Translations under genes and position numbers: made by a program
The notes under the pieces: generated by a model
What the model was told of the DNA's origin: nothing
What the model saw: the letters and a program-made list of their open reading frames with translations, nothing else
The model's database searches: none
Shown: positions 2,972-42,303 of the stretch, piece after piece
How the letters are laid out: the number at the start of each line of letters is the position of its first letter
How positions within the stretch are numbered: the first letter of the stretch is position 1
Source: an uncultured Gemmatimonadales bacterium
Lineage (GTDB): Bacteria; Gemmatimonadota; Gemmatimonadetes; Gemmatimonadales; GWC2-71-9
Assembly: GCA_963739455.1 (NCBI GenBank)
Contig: CAVUAK010000003.1
Location: 384,001-448,000 of the forward strand
Length of the DNA: 64,000 bases
Direction of reading: 5' to 3'

Positions 2972-4660
2972 TTGTCCGAGATGCTCACCGGCGCCCAGCT
3001 CATGTGCCGCATCCTCCTCGAGGAGGGTGTGGACGTGCTGTTCGGGTATCCCGGCGGCGCGATCATGCCGTTCTACCACGCGCTGCCCGAGTATCCCGGG
3101 CTGCGCCACATCCTCGTGCGGCATGAGCAGGCGGCGGCGCACGCCGCCGACGGCTATGCGCGCGCCTCGGGTCAGGCCGGCGTGTGCGTGGCTACCTCCG
3201 GACCGGGCGCCACCAACCTGGTCACCGGCCTGGCGACGGCGTACATGGACAACTCGCCGGTCGTGGCCATCACCGGGCAGGTCTCCCGCCCCATGATGGG
3301 TCGCGATGCCTTCCAGGAAACCGACATCATCGGCGTGACGCTTCCCATCACCAAGTGGAGCGTGCTGGTCGAGGACATCACCACGCTCGCCGATACCATG
3401 CGCCGCGCATTCGCCATCGCGCGCGGCGGGCGGCCCGGACCCGTGCTGGTGGACGTGCCCAAGGACGTGCAGAACCAGCGCATCGAGTACACCGCCTCGC
3501 GTCGTCGCTCCGGCGCAGCGTGCCGCCCCGGTGGTCGATGCCGGCGCGCTGGCCGATGCGGCGCGGCTCATCGGCGGCGCCGAGCGGCCGCTGATCCTTG
3601 CGGGACACGGCATCATCCTGGGCAACGCCAGCGAGGACCTGCGCATCTTCGCCGAGCACACCGGCATTCCCGTCATCACCACCCTGCTCGGCATCAGCGC
3701 CTTCCCCGAGGATCACCCGCTGCACCTCGGCATGCCGGGCATGCACGGTGAGGTGCACGTCAATCGCGCCATCCAGCATGCCGACCTGCTGATCGCGGTG
3801 GGTATGCGCTTCGACGATCGCGTGACCGGGAACACCGCGGGCTTCGCCCGTCACGCGAAGATTGTCCACATCGAGCTCGATCCCACCGAGATCGGCAAGA
3901 ACGTGCCTGTCGAGGTGCCGCTGGTGGGCGATGCCGGGCCCATCCTCTCCGCGCTGACGCGCGCGCTGGCGCCGCGCTCCTGCACCGCCTGGTGGGAGGA
4001 GATCGACAGTTCGCGCCGGCCGCCGCACGAGCAGTTCCGCGGCGACATCGCACCCGAGGCGATTCTCCGGGCGCATGCACGATGCGAGCGGCGGGAAGTG
4101 CAGCATCGTGGCCGACGTGGGCCAGCACCAGATGTGGGTGGCCAAGCTCTTTCCCGTACCGCCGCCTCAACACCCACTTCTCGTCCGGTGGCCTCGGCGC
4201 CATGGGCTTCGCCGTGCCGGCGGCCATCGGCGTGCACCTGGCGCGCCCCGACGAGCCGGTGTGGGCCATCTCGGGCGACGGTGGCTTCCAGATGAACATG
4301 CAGGAAATGGCGACGATGGTGCAGGAAGGCCTGCCCATCAAGCTCGCGATCTTCAACAACGGGTATCTCGGCATGGTGCGGCAGTGGCAGCAGTTCTTCC
4401 ACGGCCGCCGCTACTCGGCGACGCCGATCTGGAGTCCCGACTACGTGAAGCTGGCCGAGGCGTACGGCATCGCCGGCTACCGGGTCGAGCAGGGCTCACA
4501 GATCGCCGGTGCGGTCGCGGCGGCACTCCGCGATCCCGGCCCCGCGCTCATCGAGTTCGTGATCGAGCAGGAGGCGAACGTCTACCCGATGATCCCGCCC
4601 GGTGCCTCGCTCTCGGAGGTCATCGAGACGGCGCCCGCGCCGGAGCCGGCGTCGGCATGA
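2972..4660 (+). CDS. ilvB: Acetohydroxyacid synthase large subunit (frameshifts ~3510, ~4075, ~4155)
   Basis: [36 protein letters not shown]...[12 protein letters not shown]. Confidence 0.95.
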
Positions 4661-5185
4661 GCGAGCTCCATTGCATCACCGTCGTCATGGACGACAAGCT
4701 GGTGACATTGAACGCGGCCGTCGGGCTTCTCCGGCGCCGCAATCTTCCCGTACGGAGCGTGACCTTCGGACCCCATGTCACCGAGGGACGCTCGAGGCTC
4801 TTTGCGATGATCGAGGCAGATGAAGGTGCGGCACAGCGGGTGGCGCTGCTGTTCGAGAAGCTGATCGGCGTGGACGAGGCGCGCATCGGTGCCGGCGGAC
4901 AGACACCGTGGTGCGCGAGCTCGCCCTGATCCGGCGTCCGTCGCCCAGGCCGAGGCGTACGGCGAGCTGCTCGATGTGCTGGGTCTCTACCACGCGAACG
5001 TCATTGAGGAAGGTCCGGACGGGCTGGTGGTCGAGCTGACCGGTCCCGACACCTTCGTGCTGTCGTGCCTGCGTGCCGTCGAGCGGTTCGGCATTGTCGA
5101 TGTCGCCCGGAGCGGTGCGGTCGCCGTCGAGCGGCCGGCCGAGAATCCGCGCGCACCCACCTCCACTGAGGCTTCCGTATCATGA
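4657..5185 (+). CDS. ilvH: Acetohydroxyacid synthase regulatory subunit, divergent (frameshift ~4910)
   Basis: ACT-like N-terminus ([19 protein letters not shown]), C-terminal [14 protein letters not shown] overlaps between ilvB and ilvC. Confidence 0.8.
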
Positions 5186-6222
5186 GCTCGACGCTCCAGG
5201 TGTTCTACGACAGCGACGCGAACATCGATCGCCTCCTCGGTCGCACCATCGCGGTCATCGGCTTCGGCAGCCAGGGCCATGCGCACGCGCTCAACCTGAA
5301 GGAGTCGGGGCAGAAGGTCATCGTCGGGCTCCGGCCGGGCGGTGCCTCGTGGAAGAAGGCGGAGGCCGCCGGGCTCGACGTGCGCAGTGTCGCCGATGCG
5401 GCGCGTGCCGCCGACATCATCATGCTGCTCGTGCCCGACCAGGACATGCGCGACATCTACGACAAGGGCGTGGCGCAGGGGTTGTCGGCGGGGAAGACAC
5501 TTCTCTTCGCGCACGGCTTCAACATTCACTTCGGCGAGATCAAGCCGCCCGCCGACGTGGACGTCGCCATGATCGCGCCCAAGTCGCCCGGTCACCTGGT
5601 GCGGAGCGAGTACGAGGGCGGGCGCGGCGTGCCCGGCCTGGTCGCCATTCACCAGGACGCGAGCGGCAACGCGCTCGCAGACGCGCTCGCCTACGCCGCG
5701 GGTATCGGCTGTACCCGTGCCGGCGTGATCCAGACGTCGTTCCGCGAGGAGACGGAGACCGACCTGTTCGGCGAGCAGGCGGTGCTCTGCGGCGGGGCCA
5801 CGGCGCTGGTGAAGGCCGGCTTCGATACCCTGGTCAAGAACGGGTACTCGCCCGAAATGGCCTACTTCGAGTGCCTGCACGAGCTCAAGCTGATCGTGGA
5901 CCTCATGTATCGCGGCGGCATGGGCTTCATGCGGTACTCGATCAGCGACACCGCCGAATACGGTGACTACACCCGGGGCCCGCGGATCATCACCGAGGAA
6001 ACCCGCAAGGAGATGCAGCGGATCCTCGACGAGATCCGGAGCGGCGCGTTCGCGAGGGAGTGGCTCGCGGAGAATCGCGCGGGTGGCCCGAATTTCAAGC
6101 GCATGCGCACGGCAGACCACGACCACCTGCTGGAGAAGACCGGCCGGGCCCTCCGCGTCATGATGCCGTGGAGCGAGGAAGGGAAGGCGGCGGCGGCGAA
6201 GGCGGAGCCGGCCACCGTCTGA
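5182..6222 (+). CDS. ilvC: Ketol-acid reductoisomerase
   Basis: [39 protein letters not shown]. Confidence 0.97.
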
Positions 6223-7666
6223 TGAGCGAGCCGCGCACCCTCTTCCAGAAGATCTGGGATGCCCACGTCGTCCATGCGATGCCGGGGGGGCCAGCGCTGT
6301 TGTATATCGACCTGCACCTGGTGCATGAGGTCACGTCGCCGCAGGCATTCGAGGGCCTGAGGCTCGCGGGGCGCCAGGTGCGCCGGCCCGGCCGGACCCT
6401 GGCCACCGTGGATCACAATGTGCCCACCGGCGATCGGCACCTCCCCATCGCCGACCCGATCGCCGCACAGCAGGTGCGGACGCTCACGACCAATGCGCGA
6501 GCGTTCGGCCTGCCGCTCTTCGACCTCGACTCGCCCGACCAGGGCATCGTGCATGTCATCGGGCCCGAACTTGGTGCCACGCAGCCCGGCATGACGATCG
6601 TGTGCGGCGATTCACACACCTCGACGCACGGCGCGTTCGGCGCGCTCGCATTCGGGATCGGCACCAGCGAGGTGGAGCATGTGCTCGCCACGCAGTGCCT
6701 CATGCAGCAGCGCCCTCGCACCATGGAGGTCCGGTTCGAGGGCACGCTGGCCGATGGCGTAACGGCCAAGGACATGATCCTGGCACTCATCGGGCGCATC
6801 GGTACCGATGGCGCGTCCGGGCATGTGCTCGAGTACCGTGGCAGCGCCATCCGGCAGCTGTCCATGGAAGGGCGCATGACCATCTGCAACATGTCCATCG
6901 AGGCCGGCGCCCGTGCCGGGCTGATCGCGCCCGATGACACCACCTTCGCCTACCTGGCTGGACGGCCGCGTGCGCCCAGCGGCGCCGCGTGGACCGCCGC
7001 GGTTGCGCGCTGGCGCGACCTGGCCACCGACGCGGGCGCAGTCTTCGACCGTTCCATCACGATCGACGTCACGTACGCTGGCACCGCAGGTGACCTGGGG
7101 TACCAATCCCGGGATGGTCGGTGATATCACCGGCCGCGTGCCCGTGCCGAGCGATGATGACTCGGCGGATACCAGGGGTGCGCTGGCGCGCGCACTGGAG
7201 TACATGGGCCTGCGCCCGGGCGAGGCGCTCGAGGGACTCAAGGTCGATCGCGTCTTCCTCGGTTCGTGCACCAACGCGCGACTGGAAGACCTGCGCGAGG
7301 CCGCGTCGGTCGTGCGCGGGCCAGAAGGTGGCACAGGGCGTCCGCGCGATGGTGGTGCCTGGCTCGCAGCGGGTGAAGCGCGCCGCGGAGGCCGAAGGAC
7401 TCGACGATGTCTTCATCCAGGCCGGGTTCGAGTGGCGCAACAGCGGCTGCTCCATGTGCCTGGGCATGAACGACGACGTCCTCGGCAGCGGTGAGCGCTG
7501 TGCATCCACCTCGAACCGCAATTTCGAGGGACGCCAGGGCAAGGGTGGTCGTACCCATCTCATGAGCCCGGTGATGGCCGCTGCTGCCGCCGTGGCGGGC
7601 CGGCTCGTCGACGTGCGCGAGGTGGTTCGGAGGAGTGAACGGACAACGGTGGGCGCTGGGCGGTAG
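6222..7666 (+). CDS. leuC: 3-isopropylmalate dehydratase large subunit (frameshifts ~7075, ~7320)
   Basis: [45 protein letters not shown]. Confidence 0.96.
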
Positions 7667-33552: not shown

Positions 33553-34335
33553 CTAGCCGCCCTTTTTCGCCCGTTTCCGGCCCTGAAACACGCATCCTGG
33601 GTGCAGTCCCTTGCCCTTTGGCGGCCACTCGAAGCACAGGTCCGGCTTGGCCGTCCGGCCGTCTGCCCGCTGACGCCCGTGGAGCGTGCAGGCCACCCCG
33701 CCATCCTCGATGAACCCGCAGGCAGAAATCATCTCGACGTCGATCGAGAAGTCGCCTTCCCGCCCCACCTTGCACAGGTAGGGTGACTTCCGGTGCCGCA
33801 CGAGCGCCTCCAGGAACTTCTGCTTCCGGGTGCACATGATCTCGACCTGCAGGTCCCGGCAGCAGGCGGCTCCCCGCTTGTGGTCCGATGTCTCGCAGGG
33901 CGCTCCCTCGCACGGGTTGCCGGAGTCGGTGCTGAGCACCGGCAGGGAGCGTGGCGGGGTTGGCGGCGGGAAGTGCCGGTTCACCACCTTCATCCGGTCC
34001 ACAACCCGGAACCGGTCCTTCCCCAGTTGCCTGGGCTGCTCCTGAACCCGGGGTGGCCGCGGGGTGCGCCCCTCGAAGCCGTGGGCGGCGCACCGCGACT
34101 GGCCGTCACCGAAGCTTTTCAGGTGCCGACAGGGTACATGCAGCACGGCGTCGACATACAGCTCGCCCTCCCCGGTCCACACCTCGCCGAACGAGATGCG
34201 CTGCGTATGGCCCAGGAGCCAGGTTGCCTCATGATCCAGGGAGGCAGCCCCCTCCTCCAGGGACCCGATGCGCAGCAACACGTCGAGCGCCTGGCACTGG
34301 CGGCCAAGAGATTCACAGCCTGGGGGAGCGCTCAT
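33553..34335 (-). CDS. Cys-rich protein, YkgJ/CxxCxxCC-like with two related halves
   Basis: AACCRDL, CGFI..CTLHG..PDLCFEWP, PCRHL..CAAHG. Confidence 0.65.
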   Translation of the reverse strand: MSAPPGCESLGRQCQALDVLLRIGSLEEGAASLDHEATWLLGHTQRISFGEVWTGEGELYVDAVLHVPCRHLKSFGDGQSRCAAHGFEGRTPRPPRVQEQPRQLGKDRFRVVDRMKVVNRHFPPPTPPRSLPVLSTDSGNPCEGAPCETSDHKRGAACCRDLQVEIMCTRKQKFLEALVRHRKSPYLCKVGREGDFSIDVEMISACGFIEDGGVACTLHGRQRADGRTAKPDLCFEWPPKGKGLHPGCVFQGRKRAKKGG

Positions 34336-34999: not shown

Positions 35000-35045
35000 G
35001 TGAGGGGTGAGGGGGGTTCGTTCCTCCTCACCCCTCACGCTTTTT
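35000..35045 (+). terminator. Intrinsic terminator
   Basis: GTGAGGGGTGAGG / CCTCACCCCTCAC stem followed by TTTTT. Confidence 0.75.
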
Positions 35046-35055
35046 CAGTTCCTCC

Positions 35056-35928
35056 TCACGCACTTGGTTCCAGTCGAGCTGCCACCCACGGAACGACGAG
35101 CCCGACAAGGACGCCTGCGATCGCATCCCACGCGTAGTGCATCTGCGTATACACCGTTGCGATGGGCATCAGGACCACTGGCACGAGCAGGATCCAGCCC
35201 AGTGTGCGGTTTCCCTTGAACGTCGCCAGTCCGGCGGCGGTCGCGGCGGCCACGTGCGATGAAGGAAAGGCGGCCCCGAAGGAGCTGCCTGACGCCAGCA
35301 TGGCATACACCAGGTGGGCCGGCAGGTTGTCCACCATGAGCCCAGTCGGGCGCTCGAACACGTAGTACGGACCCGCGACCGGGTAGAGCACGAAGACAAG
35401 CGAGCAGACGCTGAACGTGCACACGACGTTGCGCGTGAATCGCCGGAAGGCAGGCCAGTTTCCGGTCAGCAGGAAGAAGAACGCCGGCACCGCGAGGATC
35501 AGGTAATAGCCGAAGTAGACACCATGCAGCAGCGTCGACCAGAAGGGGCTGGTGTGCCCACGCCACCAGTCGCGGGCTGGCTGCATCCCGAACGCCGCTT
35601 CCTCCCAGCGCCAGCAGCACGTCGTCATGTGCCCTCAGCTGTCCGCCACCGCTCAGCACATCCAGTGCGGCGTAGCTGACCAGCACGAGGATCAGGGGCA
35701 TGACCTCGCGCAGGAGCCGGCCGGCGGCGCCCAGGCCGGGGCGCGTCACCAGCCAGAGCCACACGACGATGAGCAGGTGCGCGAGCGCGACGAACCAGTT
35801 GCCGCGCGTCAGGTCGAGGCGGGTGAGGGCGGTGATGTCACGATCGCCGCATAGGTCGCGAGGAAGATTTCGGCGGCGCGCCACCGCGGGGCGCCACTTT
35901 CCGGCGGCGGGACTAGCGGGGAAGCCAA
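35056..35928 (-). CDS. PAP2_3 / Aur1-like phosphotransferase (frameshifts ~35620, ~35835)
   Basis: YPVAGPYY, FGAAFPSSH, TVYTQMHYAWD; multiple TMs. Confidence 0.8.
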
Positions 35929-36894
35929 CCTGAGTCCTGGTACCACGCCTTGGTGGCCGCGAGGCCACGGTCGAGGTCGTGCTCCGGCGTCCATCCCGTC
36001 TCGGACATCAGCTGCGTGGGATCTCCCGTCCAGCCGGGCGAGAAGAAATCGTGCGCCTTGTCGGCCCGGAGGATCGTCCGGTTGCCGAGGAGTCCGGCCA
36101 CCTGGCCCGCGGCGCCGAGCAGCACTTTCGCCGCGGGCTGGGGAATGGGAATGATGCGCACGTTCGCGGCCCATGAGCTTGCCGATGCGGCCGACGAGGT
36201 CCCTGGTGGTGACGATTTCGGGATGGTTCGTGAAGTAGGAGCGACCCTCGATGCCGGGCGTGCTGCCGATCAGTTCGAGCGACCGCGCCAGGTCGGGCGC
36301 GTACACCATCGACAGTTCCTGGGAACCGTCACCAAAGAGCGGTGCGAGGCCCGATCGCACCAGCTTGAACACCTGCAGGAAGTTGTCGCTGTCGCGCGGG
36401 CCATACACCGCCGGTGGCCGCGCGATGACCCATGGCAGGTGACTCTGGCGCACCACCTGTTCGGCCGCGTGCTTGCTCCGGCCATACATGGTGACCGGCG
36501 CCTCGGGCTGGTCGGCGGTGCGCGGTACGCCGAGCGCCGCCGGTCCCGCCGCGGCGAGCGAACTCACGTGCACGAGCCGGGCATAGGGCGCAAGCTGCTC
36601 CATGGCGCGCACGATGTTGGCCGTGCCGTCGCGGTTGGCCCGGAAGAATTCCGCCTCGTCCTTTGCCGCCACCAGCGCGGCCACGTGGTACACCACATTC
36701 TGCCCGCGGACCGCGTCGCGAATCGCCGCCTCGTCGTGAAGGTCGCCCTTCACCAGGCGGACACCGCGCGCCTCGAGTCCCGCGGCCTTCGCCGGCGAGC
36801 GCACCAGCGCGGTCACGTCATGTCCCGACGCGAGGAGCCGGTCGACGAGATGGCTCCCGACGAATCCGGTACCTCCGGTCACCATCGCCTTCAT
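35913..36894 (-). CDS. NAD-dependent epimerase/dehydratase SDR, CerR-like (frameshift ~36165)
   Basis: TGGTGFVG, VSSLAAAGP, YGRSK, RPPAVYGPRD. Confidence 0.82.
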
Positions 36895-38027
36895 GCGGGG
36901 CGGTCGTACAGGCGGTAGGTCTTGTAGACGCGGAAGTTCATCTTCTCGAGGCCTGCGTTCATCGCGGGGTTGTCCTCCAGGATCCAGCCTGCCTCGCCCC
37001 AGTAGATCTTCTGCTCGCCCGCCTTGGTCCAGATCCAGTGGTAGAGCATCGCGTCGACGCCGCGGCCCCTCCACTCCGGCAGGATGCCAAGCAGGATGAT
37101 GCGGCACCGACGCAGCCGGTGCGTCTTCAGCAGCCAGAACGTCTTCACCAGGAAGCGCACCAGCCCGCCGCTCTTGTTCCCCACCAGCGCGGAGTTGAGG
37201 TCGGGCAGCACGAGGCCGAAGGCGATGATCTTGCCGTCCTTCTCGGCGAACGGCACGAGCTCGGGAATGACGACCGGCTTGAACGCCTTGGCGAGGTGGT
37301 CGATCTCGTGGTCGGTCATGGGGATGAATCCCCAGTTCTTCTCCCACGCCGCGTTGTAGATCTCCTTGATCCGCTCCACCTCGGCGGGGAAGTCCTTCAT
37401 GTCCAGCGCGCGGAGGGTGATGCCCTGCCGCTTCTGGATGAGCTCCGTGCCGCGCGCCAGTCGCTCAGGGACCGGCACGTACTGCTCCATCGCGCCGCCC
37501 TGGTATACCAGCAGGTCCTTCGCCTTGACGAAGCCCGCCGCCTCGGTGAGCGCGCACGTAGTAGGGCGGGTTGTGCGGCATCAGCAGGGTGGGGGGCGTG
37601 TCGAAGCCATCGATCAGGAGGCCACACTGGTCGTTGGTGGAGAACGACGCCGGCCCGCGCATCACGTCGAGCTTTCGCGCGCGGAGCCACGCCGCGGCGG
37701 TGGCGAAGAGGGCATCGGCCACCGACTGGTCGTCGATGCAGTCGAACCAGCCGTAGAAGCCCACGCGGTCGCCGTGGGTCTCGTTGTGCAGCCGGTTCTC
37801 GATGGCGGCAATCCGGCCGACGACCGTGCCACTGCGCTCCGCGAGGAAGTACTCCGCCTCGGCGTGCTCGAAGAAGGGGTTCTTCTTGCCGGTCGAGCGT
37901 CATGTCGATGTCGAAGCCGGAGTGGCGGAACCCAGACGGGATCGCCGGCGAACAGCTGGTAGGGAAGGTCGATGAACCACTTCAGGTCCCGGCGCGAGCG
38001 CACCGGGCGGACGGTAACCTGCGTCAG
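36891..38027 (-). CDS. YghO-like GNAT acyltransferase, bacterial ceramide synthase-like (frameshifts ~37555 and ~37890-37915)
   Basis: [54 protein letters not shown]. Confidence 0.8.
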
Positions 38028-39236
38028 ATGACGCCCAGCTCGCGGCCGATGCGCCCGAACTGCTCCAGACAGAAGTCGATCTGGTCGAAGGTGTGGGTGG
38101 CCATGACGCTGGTGCGGAGGCGGCACTGCGACGGCGGCACCGCCGGCGGGGCCACCGGGTTGGTGAATACACCGGCGTCGAACAGCTGCCGCCACATGAT
38201 GAAGGTCTTCTCCAGCGGGCCGATCAGCACCGGCAGGATCGGCGTTTCCGACGGCCCGATGTCGAAGCCGAGCTGGCGGAAGCCGGCCTGGAGCCGGTTG
38301 GTGTTGGCCCAGAGGCTCTCGCGCCGCTCCGGCTCCGACTGCAGCACCTCGAGCGCCGCGAGCACGCCGGCGGTGTTGGCGGGCGGCAGCGACGCGGTGA
38401 AGATGAGCGGGCGGCTGTGGTGCCGCAGGTAGTGGATGACGCTCTCGGATGACGCCACGAAGCCGCCGATCGACGCCAGCGACTTGGAGAAGGTGCCGGC
38501 GATGATGTCGACTTCGTCGGTGAGCCCGAAGTGGGCCGCGGTGCCCTGGCCATTGGGCCCGAGCACGCCGATCGAGTGCGCGTCGTCCACGGCCAGCGCC
38601 GCGCCATGCTTGTGCGCGATGCGCACGAGGTTCGGGACGTCCGCGATGTCGCCTTCCATCGAGTAGACGCCGTCCACCACGATCATCGTGCCGCGACCTG
38701 CCTTGTCGCGCTCGCGCTCCAGCTTCCGCTCCAGCCCGGCCAGGTCGCCATGGTTGAAGCGCTCCGTCTCGCCGTAGCTCATCTTGGCGCCGTCGACGAC
38801 CGACGCATGATCGAGCTTGTCGAGCAGCACCACCTCGCCGCGACCGATCAGCCCGGAGATGAGGCCGAGGTTGGCCTGGTAGCCGGTGGAGAAGATGAGG
38901 CACGCTTCCTTGCCCAGGAACGTGGCAAGGTTGTGTTCCAGCTTTTCGTGGAGGTCCAGGGTGCCGTTCAGGAACCGGCTGCCGGTGCAGCCCGGAGCCG
39001 TACTGGTGCAGCGCCTTCTGGGCCGCTTCGAGGACCTTCGGATGGTGCGTGAGGCCGAGATAGTTGTTCGAGCCCAGCATGATGCGCCGCTTGCCCTCGA
39101 TGATGACGACAGTGTCCTCGGACTCTGAGATCGGCTTGAAGTACGGGTATAGACCCGCAGCCTGGATTTCGCGTGCCTTGGTGAACTGCCGGCACTTCTC
39201 GAAGAGGGACACCTGATGCACTATTTCTGCGTCCAC
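38024..39236 (-). CDS. spt: Serine palmitoyltransferase (alpha-oxoamine synthase; frameshift ~38995)
   Basis: [37 protein letters not shown]. Confidence 0.8.
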
Positions 39237-39324: not shown

Positions 39325-39826
39325 ATGTCACACACGCCCAATGAGCCGCGCCGCGAATTCCTGAAGCAGGGTCTGGCCGTGGGCCTGACCGTCGCCGCGG
39401 GGCAGGCGTTTCGGCCAGGACGTCTCGTCGGGCAGGCCCTCGATCCCGACCCGGAAGTGCCCAACGAGCAGGTGGCGCAGATCCTCAAGGACCTCTTCGG
39501 CGACCGACCCATCCGTCGCGGCCAGGTGCTCCTCGACATGCCGGTCGTGGCAGAGGATGGTCGGGTGGTGCCGGTCATCATCGAGGCGCCCGACCTGCCG
39601 ATGACCGCGGACGAACTATGTGAAGGCGGTGCACCTCATCGTCGATCACAATCCTGATCCGCACCTGGCGGCGTTCGACGTCACCCCGGCCATGGGCAAG
39701 CTCTCGCTCCAGTTCCGCATCAAGATGAAGCGGACCACCTGGGTGCGTGCCATCGTCGAGACGAACACCGGCGACGTGTGGGCCGACTATGCCCGGGTCA
39801 ACGTGTCGCTGAACGGGTGCGGCTGA
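39325..39826 (+). CDS. soxY: SoxY-like carrier (frameshift ~39618)
   Basis: Tat motif RREFLK, AEDGRVVPV, VDHNPDP, RIKM, C-terminal NGCG. Confidence 0.8.
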
Positions 39827-40159
39827 TGACCATCGGCGAAGCGCGCATCCGCGTTCCCAGCGAAGATCCAGCAGGGCGACATCATTTCGGTGAGCGCCAT
39901 CGTGCAGCACCCGATGGACACCGGCTTCTTCCGCTCGGCCGATGGCCAGCCGATCCCGGCGTATTTCATCAAGGACGTGACGGTCGTGTATGCCGGGTCG
40001 CAGGTGGCGCACTTCATCTGGACCTCCGGCATCAGTCGCGATCCCGTGGTGACGTTCCCGCTCATCGCCGATCGTGAAGGACCGCTCACGATCCGCTGGG
40101 TCGACAACAAGGGTGCCGTGTTCGAGCAGACGGCGCAGATCGCGTTCAGCACCACCTGA
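39826..40159 (+). CDS. soxZ: SoxZ-like carrier (frameshift ~39860)
   Basis: HPMDTG, IPAYFI, ISRDP, WVDNKG. Confidence 0.82.
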
Positions 40160-41158
40160 CGCTCCGACTCACCTTCCTGCTCGCGGCGACGCTCGTCTCT
40201 GTGCCTGCCAGCGCCCAGGTCAAGCCGCGCTACAACGCCTTCACGCGAACCACGTCGACGACCGTCTATCCGCTGCGCGAGCTCGCACCCGGCGTTTTCG
40301 TGGTGTCCGGAGACTCCGGCAAGGGCGTCGAGGGTCGGCCCAATGCCGGGTTCGTCGTGTCGCCAGGAGGCGTCCTGGTGATCGGAGGCCTGGCCAGTCC
40401 GGTGCAGGGCGACGCCGTGCTGCGCACCATCCGCACCCGCACCCCCCTCCCCATCGGGTGGTTCGTCCTGTACGCGCATCACCCCGACATGCAGTTCGGC
40501 GCCATCGCGATGAAGCGAGCTGGCGCCATCATCATTGCCCATCCCGATGCCAACATCCTCGCCTCCGAGGGCGGGCCCGACCAGATGGTGGCAGACTGGG
40601 ACCAGGTGGTGGGGCTGCAGGAGATGCTCGGGTTCGAGTTCGCCAATGTTCCCGATCGCCCGGTTACCGCGGCCGACACGCTGCGGCTGGGCGCCCGGCG
40701 GGTGGTCGTCTGGCACCCCGGCGCCGCGCATTCGCCGGGAGACCTGATGCTCTGGCTGCCCGACGACGGGATTCTCTTCGCCGGCGACGTGCTGGTGGAG
40801 GATGGCGTGACGATGGTGATCGACGGAAGCTCCATTGCGCTGCTGCGCGTGCTCGATGCCATCGAGCAGCTCCAGCCGCGGGTCATCGTTCCGGGGCATG
40901 GTCGCATCGTCACCAATCCCCAGGCACTCATCGATTCGACCCGCAGCTACATCACGGCCCTGCGCGCGGAAATGCGCGCGGCGGTCGAGGGTGGGGTGCC
41001 GATGCGCCGCGCGATGGCGCTCACTGCCTCCCGCCGACGAGGATCGCCCGGTGTCGCTGAATAGCCGGCTGCGGCGCAATGCCAATCGTGTCTACGTTGA
41101 AATGGAGCGCGAGGTCATGGGACTCGGCACCGACCAGGCGCCGGAGGAAGGAAAGTGA
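40156..41158 (+). CDS. Secreted SoxH-like metallo-beta-lactamase-fold protein (frameshift ~41025; start uncertain)
   Basis: NAGFVV, HHPDM, AHSPGD, FAGDV, VPGHG; signal peptide read from CTG at 40156. Confidence 0.78.
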
Positions 41159-42303
41159 ACCGGCGACGCGCGCTCCTGGTCGCGACCGCCCTTGCCTGGC
41201 TTCCTGCCGGGGCCTCGGCACAGCAGGCTGCAACCGTGCCCCAGCTTCTTTCCACTGATTCACTGGCGGCATGGCAGGAGCGCGGCGTGCCGCTGCGGCT
41301 GCTCGACGTGCGCCTCGACGTGTGGACCTACCTGAAGGGTCACCTGCCCGGGGCGCAGTACCTCAACATCGAGACGCTGCGTGCCAGCAAGGGCGGTGTC
41401 CCGGTGCAGCTGCTCGATGCGCCGTGGTACCGCGAGCTGTTCAAGCGCCTGGGACTCGATCCCGCCGTGCCGGTCGTGGTGTACAGCACGGGCGAAACAC
41501 TGAACATCGACGCGACATTCGCCGTCTGGATACTCGCGTCCATGGGGCACCCCAGGGTGTATCTCCTCGATGGCGGCTCGTCCAAGTGGAGTCTCGAGGG
41601 AAGGGAGATCGCGCGACGGTATCCCGATGTCGAGCCGGCCGGGCGCTGGTGGAACTCGCGATCCTTCCGGCCGGCCGTGGCGACGATTGCCGATGTGCAG
41701 CACGGCTTCGAGACTGGCGTGCTGCTCGTCGACGCCCGTCCCCATGAACAGTACGTGGGGGACGCAGGCTCCCAGATGCGACAGGGACACCTTCCCGGTG
41801 CCGTCAACCACTACTGGCAGGATGACCTCGAGACCGTTGGGTTCGGCCGGGTCTTTCGTTCCGTGGACAGCCTGCGTGCCCGATACGTCGCCGAGGGGAT
41901 CGTGCCCGAACGGGACATCATCCTCTACTGCAACAGTGCGACCGAGGCGAGTCACGTGTATTTCGTGCTCACGTACCTCCTCGGCTTTCCGCGCGTGCGC
42001 ATCTACGCTGGATCCTGGACGGAGTGGGCCGAGCGTGAAGAGCTGCCGGTCGAACGCGGGATGGGGCCCGGGAGGAGCCAAATCCCTCCGCGCCCAATAG
42101 CTGACGGTTGCGCCCGCCCCGATAGTCCCGTAGCCTTGTTACATACCATTACTGTCACACCACGTGACGACTTTGCTGTCGTGCGGCGGTTCCCGAGCCC
42201 CCGGGCGGGACCGGGGAGCCCTGCACAAGGCATTCACGTCGGCCAGAGGCCTGCCGCGAGCAGGCCTCTGGCGCATTTGAGGTCTAACATATGGGTCGAT
42301 TGA
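41155..42303 (+). CDS. Tandem-domain rhodanese/sulfurtransferase with signal peptide (true end may be ~42100)
   Basis: GHLPGA twice, LDGG, YCNSA, YAGSWTEW. Confidence 0.85.
   Translation: MNRRRALLVATALAWLPAGASAQQAATVPQLLSTDSLAAWQERGVPLRLLDVRLDVWTYLKGHLPGAQYLNIETLRASKGGVPVQLLDAPWYRELFKRLGLDPAVPVVVYSTGETLNIDATFAVWILASMGHPRVYLLDGGSSKWSLEGREIARRYPDVEPAGRWWNSRSFRPAVATIADVQHGFETGVLLVDARPHEQYVGDAGSQMRQGHLPGAVNHYWQDDLETVGFGRVFRSVDSLRARYVAEGIVPERDIILYCNSATEASHVYFVLTYLLGFPRVRIYAGSWTEWAEREELPVERGMGPGRSQIPPRPIADGCARPDSPVALLHTITVTPRDDFAVVRRFPSPRAGPGSPAQGIHVGQRPAASRPLAHLRSNIWVD

Follow-up and report, generated by a model that had tools for sequence, protein, structure and literature searches.

Four overlapping genes occupy positions 39236 to 35056 on the minus strand of a 64,000-nt stretch of contig CAVUAK010000003.1 (assembly GCA_963739455.1), which comes from an uncultured Gemmatimonadales bacterium (GWC2-71-9). 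We refer to this whole stretch as the window, and positions are those of the window unless another locus is named. The genes encode a serine palmitoyltransferase (Spt), an N-acyltransferase of the YghO/bCerS type with GNAT domains, a short-chain dehydrogenase/reductase (SDR) of the CerR type, and an eight-helix membrane protein of family PF14378. The features of the locus are as follows.

38024..39236, minus strand: spt, coding for a serine palmitoyltransferase of about 403 aa; GTG start; a single +1 indel near 38993
36891..38027, minus strand: N-acyltransferase of the bCerS/YghO type with a double GNAT, about 377 aa; its predicted CTG start overlaps the TGA of spt; three +1 indels
35913..36894, minus strand: CerR-type extended SDR reductase, about 326 aa, with TGGTGFVG and YGRSK, one +1 indel
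35056..35928, minus strand: Aur1-like membrane protein of lipid phosphotransferase fold (PF14378), about 290 aa, eight helices, H-H-D triad, predicted TTG start, two indels
38024..38040, minus strand: spt/GNAT junction, where a G-rich Shine-Dalgarno-like stretch precedes CTGA (stop TGA, start CTG)
35000..35038, plus strand: terminator-like 17-pair hairpin with a T run, separating the end of the operon from the convergent cupredoxin gene

The first-pass annotation, made from the sequence alone, had proposed a ceramide-type operon of four overlapping minus-strand genes. All four were found at this place, and every motif it had quoted was located in the window, including GLYPYF (39155-39138), SRFLNGT (38980-38960) and GTFSKSLAS (38497-38471) in Spt, and YPVAGPYY (35385-35362), FGAAFPSSH (35280-35254) and HYAWD (35139-35125) in the PAP2 protein. 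The overlaps measure four bases between spt and the GNAT gene (CTGA), four between the GNAT and SDR genes (ATGA), and about 16 between the SDR and PAP2 genes. The hairpin, a consensus match only, with its T run on the plus strand, marks the end of the operon. No Rfam family matched anywhere in the 64-kb window, and a site scan of the window found no sigma-70-like promoter.

Seven single-base indels, six of them insertions, split the reading frames (spt near 38993; GNAT near 37918, 37895 and 37552; SDR near 36164; PAP2 near 35836 and 35608). They look like assembly errors and were treated as such, because none of the seven recurs in the four aligned loci of the same genus, and for each there is at least one public contig, from a close relative, that lacks it. 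In addition, frame changes relative to a same-genus genome affect 27 of 75 further genes of the assembly. We consider it most improbable that the indels are true mutations in an operon undergoing decay in this strain. Their density, 7 per 4.2 kb, does exceed the lower bound of 0.4 per kb in other genes, and the source reads were not found; however, every change is a single base, identity between the gene pieces and intact orthologues is still 82-95%, the indels do not occur in contigs of close relatives, and the ino1 gene is broken in the same manner as the 27 others. Indel density at the DNA level, measured by blastn, was dropped as a test of decay since controls gave the same gap rate. Most analyses were run on the intact orthologues from a locus of the same genus (L022, genome G003; 3136-7332), which are 82-94% identical to the window's genes.

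The arrangement of the four genes is conserved. Among named genomes, we collected the best 80 relatives of the fourth gene; all but one carry a label of Gemmatimonadales, Gemmatimonadota or a lower rank, the exception being labelled Bacillota. At all 61 loci with at least 3.6 kb of upstream DNA, spt, the GNAT gene and the SDR gene precede the PAP2 gene, and the remaining 19 loci are cut by contig ends. The first-pass annotation had asked for synteny in relatives; with 61 loci out of 61, the gene arrangement is not due to chance. A survey of 120 genomes of the phylum, with thresholds of E < 1e-50 for a strong match to the fourth gene and E 1e-20 for the GNAT, found the former in 63 and the latter in 75. 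These counts include two unpublished genomes (G082, in the 63 and in the 57 given below, and G120, for the GNAT only), and weaker or partial fourth-gene matches, such as those of G129, G080, G033 and G077, were left out of the strong count. All 63 genomes are among the 75, and none of the 45 genomes devoid of the GNAT has a strong match. In 57 of the 63, the fourth gene lies within 1.5 kb downstream of the GNAT gene. In family f2 the GNAT is present in 5 of 28 genomes, three of which also have a strong match to the fourth gene.

Profile scores, rankings against known structures and a tree agree that the first gene is an spt, as had been annotated, and not bioF or kbl. The intact orthologue (L022:3136-4347) scored best with NF047600 (SerpalmtaseCFB), at 536 bits versus 389 for bioF and 386 for Kbl. 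Among PDB entries, the window's own Spt piece matched the SPT structure 3a2b best, with 314 bits, whereas Kbl reached 215 and cysteate acyltransferase 204. In a 15-row tree with few references, window-type Spt grouped with Spt of Escherichia coli BL21, apart from BioF and Kbl (support 83/89), and the second alpha-oxoamine synthase of the genome grouped with E. coli Kbl. The GNAT, whose gene adjoins spt, aligns with YghO of E. coli BL21 over its full length (35% identity over 383 columns, E 2e-78) and is the sole match of that query in this genome; yghO is listed as the orthologue of Caulobacter CC_1154 (PMC9386255). A PDB sequence search with the GNAT gave no match. The SDR orthologue is 28% identical to ECD_02852 (E 8e-31); with ECD_02852 as the query, the SDR was the best match in the genome (86 bits versus 56 for the next), and the two fell into the same clade of a 17-row tree (support 88/91). 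The YghO/bCerS and CerR assignments of the first-pass annotation were thus borne out. By tblastn with BL21 queries, we found no AcpR or LptF/LptG paralogue in this genome. The Spt is nearer to the Bacteroidota type, which suggests acyl-CoA as its acyl donor. Altogether, the first three genes of the operon very probably direct the synthesis of ceramide.

The fourth protein matches PF14378 with 67.8 bits. The predicted model of its intact orthologue in L022 is of high confidence (pLDDT 94.5) and consists of eight long helices. A Foldseek search ranked yeast Aur1 first (E 1e-4, TM 0.65), with LpxE at E 0.08 and TM 0.41. VIA comparisons likewise gave the highest scores to Aur1 (Z 17.7, rmsd 5.6 over 271 residues; also Z 17.6, rmsd 4.0 over 252), LpxE reaching Z 15.8 over 162 residues and SMSr Z 11.3. 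The whole chain was matched, and the model shares the extra N-terminal helices of Aur1. The family profile aligns motif on motif with FPAAPPWY, FGAFPSLH and HHYFVD of Aur1. The residues H222, H261 and D265, invariant in 31 of 31 family members, correspond to the Aur1 triad H255/H294/D298, which is reported to work via a phospho-histidine (PMC13133130). Searching the ESM Atlas with the protein returned PF14378 clusters only, and the subfamily comprises 943 clusters at 50% identity, with E-values up to 1e-30. The phosphatase consensus, which we take to be K-x6-RP for C1 and [ST]R-x5-H-x3-D for C3, is almost absent: among 150 family representatives the first pattern occurs in none and the second in one. 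The C3 Arg, six residues before the catalytic His, is present in the aligned LpxE and YodM and in 0 of 31 family members. C1 is described as helping to bind phosphate, and sphingomyelin synthases as devoid of it (PMC5798408). The distribution of Lys and Arg residues, read by the positive-inside rule, places both catalytic loops outside the cytoplasm, that is, on the predicted periplasmic side. This would fit the periplasmic last step reported for CerR of Caulobacter, which reduces the ketone in that compartment (10.1101/2023.11.08.566215). The ranking of the folds, the retained triad and the missing phosphatase Lys and Arg all favor the Aur1-like assignment made earlier over a typical phosphatase, and a head-group transferase is with good probability the best reading of the fourth protein.

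Elsewhere in the genome, at least 66 kb from the ceramide operon, a PIP-synthase-like gene (PIP, phosphatidylinositol phosphate; 136 bits, cut-off 170) directly precedes an inositol-phosphate synthase gene (G000:C3:493771-495820; L148:7771-9820). Homology, fold, conservation and co-occurrence establish the identity of the operon's genes; the activities, topology and donor set out here are predictions from sequence and model. The four genes would form a translationally coupled phosphosphingolipid operon. Spt would condense serine with a fatty acyl-CoA to give 3-ketosphinganine, the GNAT would N-acylate this intermediate, and the SDR would reduce its ketone to yield dihydroceramide, in the order of steps proposed for Caulobacter. 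The Aur1-fold enzyme, with its active site at the periplasmic face of the inner membrane, would take a phospho-head group from a glycerophospholipid via a phospho-histidine, release diacylglycerol and pass the head group to the 1-OH of ceramide. The likeliest donor would be phosphatidylinositol (PI), supplied by the separate pips-ino1 pair, and the product inositol-phosphoceramide. That the conserved operon makes ceramide and transfers a head group to it appears likely.

A number of observations weigh against this reading. Related genomes entered the conservation and co-occurrence counts, which are therefore not made of independent observations. Three genomes of family f3 (G034, G032, G030) have an spt-SDR-PAP2 operon with no GNAT in it, and Aur1-like paralogues also occur away from spt. 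The Spt orthologue remains under the curated cut-offs (536 of 640 bits for NF047600, CFB; 432 of 500 for NF047599), as it does under those of bioF and Kbl, and the support for its position in the tree is only moderate. The score below cut-off could mean that the first three genes build a ceramide-like lipid from another amino acid, such as a cysteate sulfonolipid or a deoxyceramide, and that the fourth protein has another acceptor; alanine has been reported as a possible Spt substrate (PMC11334938). We regard this as very unlikely, as SPT structures score well above cysteate acyltransferase and as a backbone without the 1-OH would leave the co-conserved phosphotransferase with no target.

With regard to the fourth protein, a match to PF14378 alone says little, because 9 of 14 control genomes pass its cut-off. 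At the sequence level Aur1 is matched only weakly (profile E 0.55 across 210 positions), and LpxE and YodM obtained better profile E-values, over the C-terminal part only. On NF052609, the family of the PI-dihydroceramide synthase BT_1522, the protein scored 14.3 bits for a cut-off of 480; the best of 31 members reached E 5e-5, and the genome holds no NF052609 match. The protein might be a hydrolase, either a lipid phosphate phosphatase acting on ceramide-1-phosphate, PIP, phosphatidylglycerophosphate or lipid A, or a phospholipase-C-like trimmer of sphingolipid head groups. The fold and triad that it has in common with LpxE, PgpB and G6PC1, the ranking of LpxE and YodM by sequence, the presence of LpxC, so that lipid A is made, and the failure to find a PgpA in the genome would all suit such a function, which we nevertheless judge improbable. 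It is devoid of the C1 Lys/Arg and the C3 Arg of LpxE and YodM, it possesses the N-terminal helices of Aur1, and a separate BcrC-like PAP2 protein is encoded in the genome. Furthermore, 25 of the 28 f2 genomes have a myo-inositol-phosphate synthase (MIPS) and only three a strong fourth-gene match, arguing that it is not a general PIP phosphatase, as it is missing from most f2 genomes that keep MIPS.

The genome also has pssA, pgsA and a cardiolipin-synthase-like gene, whose products offer other donors of the head group, and no PgpA-type PIP phosphatase was found in this genome, which is 84% complete. MIPS is not tied to the ceramide operon, because it is found in 113 of 121 genomes of the phylum; being near-universal, it does no more than make PI a possible donor, and its spread suggests that Gemmatimonadota in general have inositol lipids. 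Since the genome encodes the PIP-synthase/inositol-phosphate-synthase pair, PI is the likeliest single donor and inositol the main head group, a proposition to which we give about an even chance. The same operon and mechanism could instead use phosphatidylethanolamine (PE) or phosphatidylglycerol (PG), or several lipids, to make ethanolamine- or glycerol-phosphoceramide, in which case the family of the fourth protein would form a class of bacterial enzymes for head groups without assigned synthases. This alternative is less likely. In its favor, the fourth protein is far from the BT_1522 family and its gene adjoins the ceramide core rather than inositol genes, unlike BT_1522; moreover, pssA and pgsA are at hand, and B. 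thetaiotaomicron is reported to have no match to a eukaryotic ethanolamine-phosphoceramide synthase (PMC8791184). In contrast, the closest fold is that of Aur1, which uses PI, while SMSr scored lower (Z 11.3), and no searched genome clearly has the fourth gene without inositol genes. One genome (G062) has the fourth gene and no MIPS match, with its PIP synthase gene cut by a contig end, and another (G011) is 83% complete. G062 was for that reason dropped as a counter-example to a PI donor, as was G015, whose operon lies at a contig end of an assembly in 490 contigs. One nearly complete genome (G071; 99%, 30 contigs) is informative, as it keeps spt-GNAT-SDR and has lost both the fourth gene and the inositol genes, with no MIPS and no strong PIP-synthase match. 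Another (G132) is without the fourth gene and has kept the inositol genes.

The junction of spt and the GNAT gene is itself conserved. In 67 of 68 loci an NTG in frame with the GNAT overlaps the spt TGA, in the form CTG(A) in 63, and the nearest downstream canonical start usually lies inside the conserved domain, over 20 codons in. In 50 of 61 loci the Gly codon three before the spt stop reads GGG or GGA, versus 27% within spt, as would be expected if a Shine-Dalgarno-like stretch were kept. The C of CTGA is expected from Ile codon use alone (ATC 91%). A genus-wide habit of CTG starts was considered and rejected: in 400 kb of a single genome (G006), a small sample, the nine overlaps without another canonical start comprised five GTGA, four ATGA and no CTGA. 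A canonical start 33 codons inside spt is found upstream in 56 of 67 loci, and eight loci have none; we take it to result incidentally from the conservation of Spt codons. In more distant orders the spt/GNAT overlap is lost. Predicted reinitiation at the CUG would lower the level of bCerS relative to Spt. A bolder proposal would be that the subfamily represents widespread bacterial ceramide head-group transferases distinct from BT_1522, which use PE or PG besides PI and supply the unassigned ethanolamine- and glycerol-phosphoceramide synthases, and that in Gemmatimonadales the flux is tuned by the conserved CUG start holding ceramide synthase below Spt; we hold this combination to be doubtful.

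Variants of these genes were seen at other loci. The GNAT-less operons of family f3 (L044:4169-6368, L045:4138-6337 and L038) belong to genomes that are 98-100% complete and have only a distant YghO paralogue (29-32%), located elsewhere; there, a different N-acyltransferase may take part, or the product may be of a lyso type. Conversely, two loci (L203 and L204, in G102 and G146) have a bCerS-type GNAT (45%) but neither spt nor an SDR gene in the 12-13 kb examined. A second cassette is devoid of spt and consists of a tandem pair of Aur1-like genes together with a CerR-like SDR, to which an Rce1-like membrane protein is usually added (L214, L225, L234, L240, L241, L277, L285; L053). The family representatives P0036 and P0042, which are PAP2-SDR fusions, are rare variants of it. 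Such fusions were dropped as functional support, since the two parts are separate genes in all 45 metagenome loci that hold both, in the form of a PAP2-PAP2-SDR-Rce1-like cassette without spt. Stand-alone Aur1-like paralogues lie beside fatty acid hydroxylase or desaturase genes (L052:7556-8818, L055:4396-5622, L285:4849-5940). At two loci (L168:6464-10489, L171:2362-8899) a second YghO paralogue is divergent from two B12-binding radical SAM genes, and in L171 a further Spt-like gene and one that is FemAB-like come next; these loci may be modified-lipid clusters. In the window, plus-strand genes divergent from spt (39325-42303) code for a SoxY-like protein, without a clear match at the true SoxY cut-off, a SoxZ-like protein, a SoxH-related metallohydrolase and a rhodanese, and they are kept beside spt in the genus. 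On the other side of the operon, a minus-strand gene (33553-34335) encodes a Cys-rich protein of 260 aa with no Pfam or NCBIfam match. It is conserved between the cupredoxin gene and a pair of genes for an extracytoplasmic function (ECF) sigma factor and an anti-sigma factor, and one locus (L031) has three tandem copies.

The organisms usually associated with inositol-phosphoceramide are fungi, plants, protozoa and some Bacteroidota. If our proposal is correct, phosphosphingolipids, with inositol-phosphoceramide as the probable form, are made by a large uncultured branch of Gemmatimonadota, which would bear on lipid biomarkers in environmental samples. The compact four-gene cassette, with its intact natural orthologues, also gives a handle on the function of a large Aur1-fold bacterial family. 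The first-pass annotation had stressed the novelty of both lineage and route. As to the lineage, we found no literature that names Gemmatimonadota as sphingolipid producers; the main text and preprint of PMC11334938 are silent on them, although its supplement may list them. The surprise was overstated nonetheless, because that study extends Spt-like genes to 40 phyla and because BT_1522 makes inositol-phosphoceramide in Bacteroides thetaiotaomicron, where its knockout loses this lipid (PMC9246714, PMC8791184). By these reports, bacteria were already known to carry out transphosphatidylation onto ceramide. What this analysis adds is the conserved CTG start of the GNAT gene overlapping the spt stop, and the inositol link.

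The ceramide core resembles Spt, bCerS and CerR of Caulobacter crescentus and the orthologues in E. coli BL21 (ECD_02854, yghO ECD_02850 and ECD_02852), which are likewise three homologous clustered enzymes; the window enzymes are 42% (Spt), 35% (GNAT) and 28% (SDR) identical to the BL21 proteins. The system differs from both in its single coupled operon that includes a head-group gene, in its Spt of a more Bacteroidota-like type, and in the lack of AcpR and LptF/LptG paralogues by tblastn. The PAP2 phosphatases LpxE and PgpB/YodM have the core fold and the H-H-D triad in common with the fourth protein; however, they align over about 160-170 residues only, and their phosphate-binding Lys and Arg are missing from it. 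Yeast Aur1, the inositol-phosphoceramide synthase (PDB 9vj4, 9ivc), is the best whole-chain fold match, with aligned triad and flanking motifs, and like the fourth protein it has no Arg before the C3 His. The two differ in that identity is only 16-20% and the operon holds no Kei1-like partner. The H157/F158/GAP region of Aur1, tied to aureobasidin binding (PMC13133130), is not conserved as such in the fourth protein, so sensitivity to this drug cannot be assumed. BT_1522 (NF052609) is a bacterial Aur1 homologue for the very reaction proposed here. It belongs to another subfamily (14 bits for the window's protein, cut-off 480) and lies in an inositol cluster, whereas the fourth gene lies in the ceramide operon. 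The operon is thus probably a variation on chemistry already described in Bacteroides, with a putative head-group transferase from an uncharacterised Aur1-fold subfamily, and it would bring new chemistry only if the donor were other than PI.

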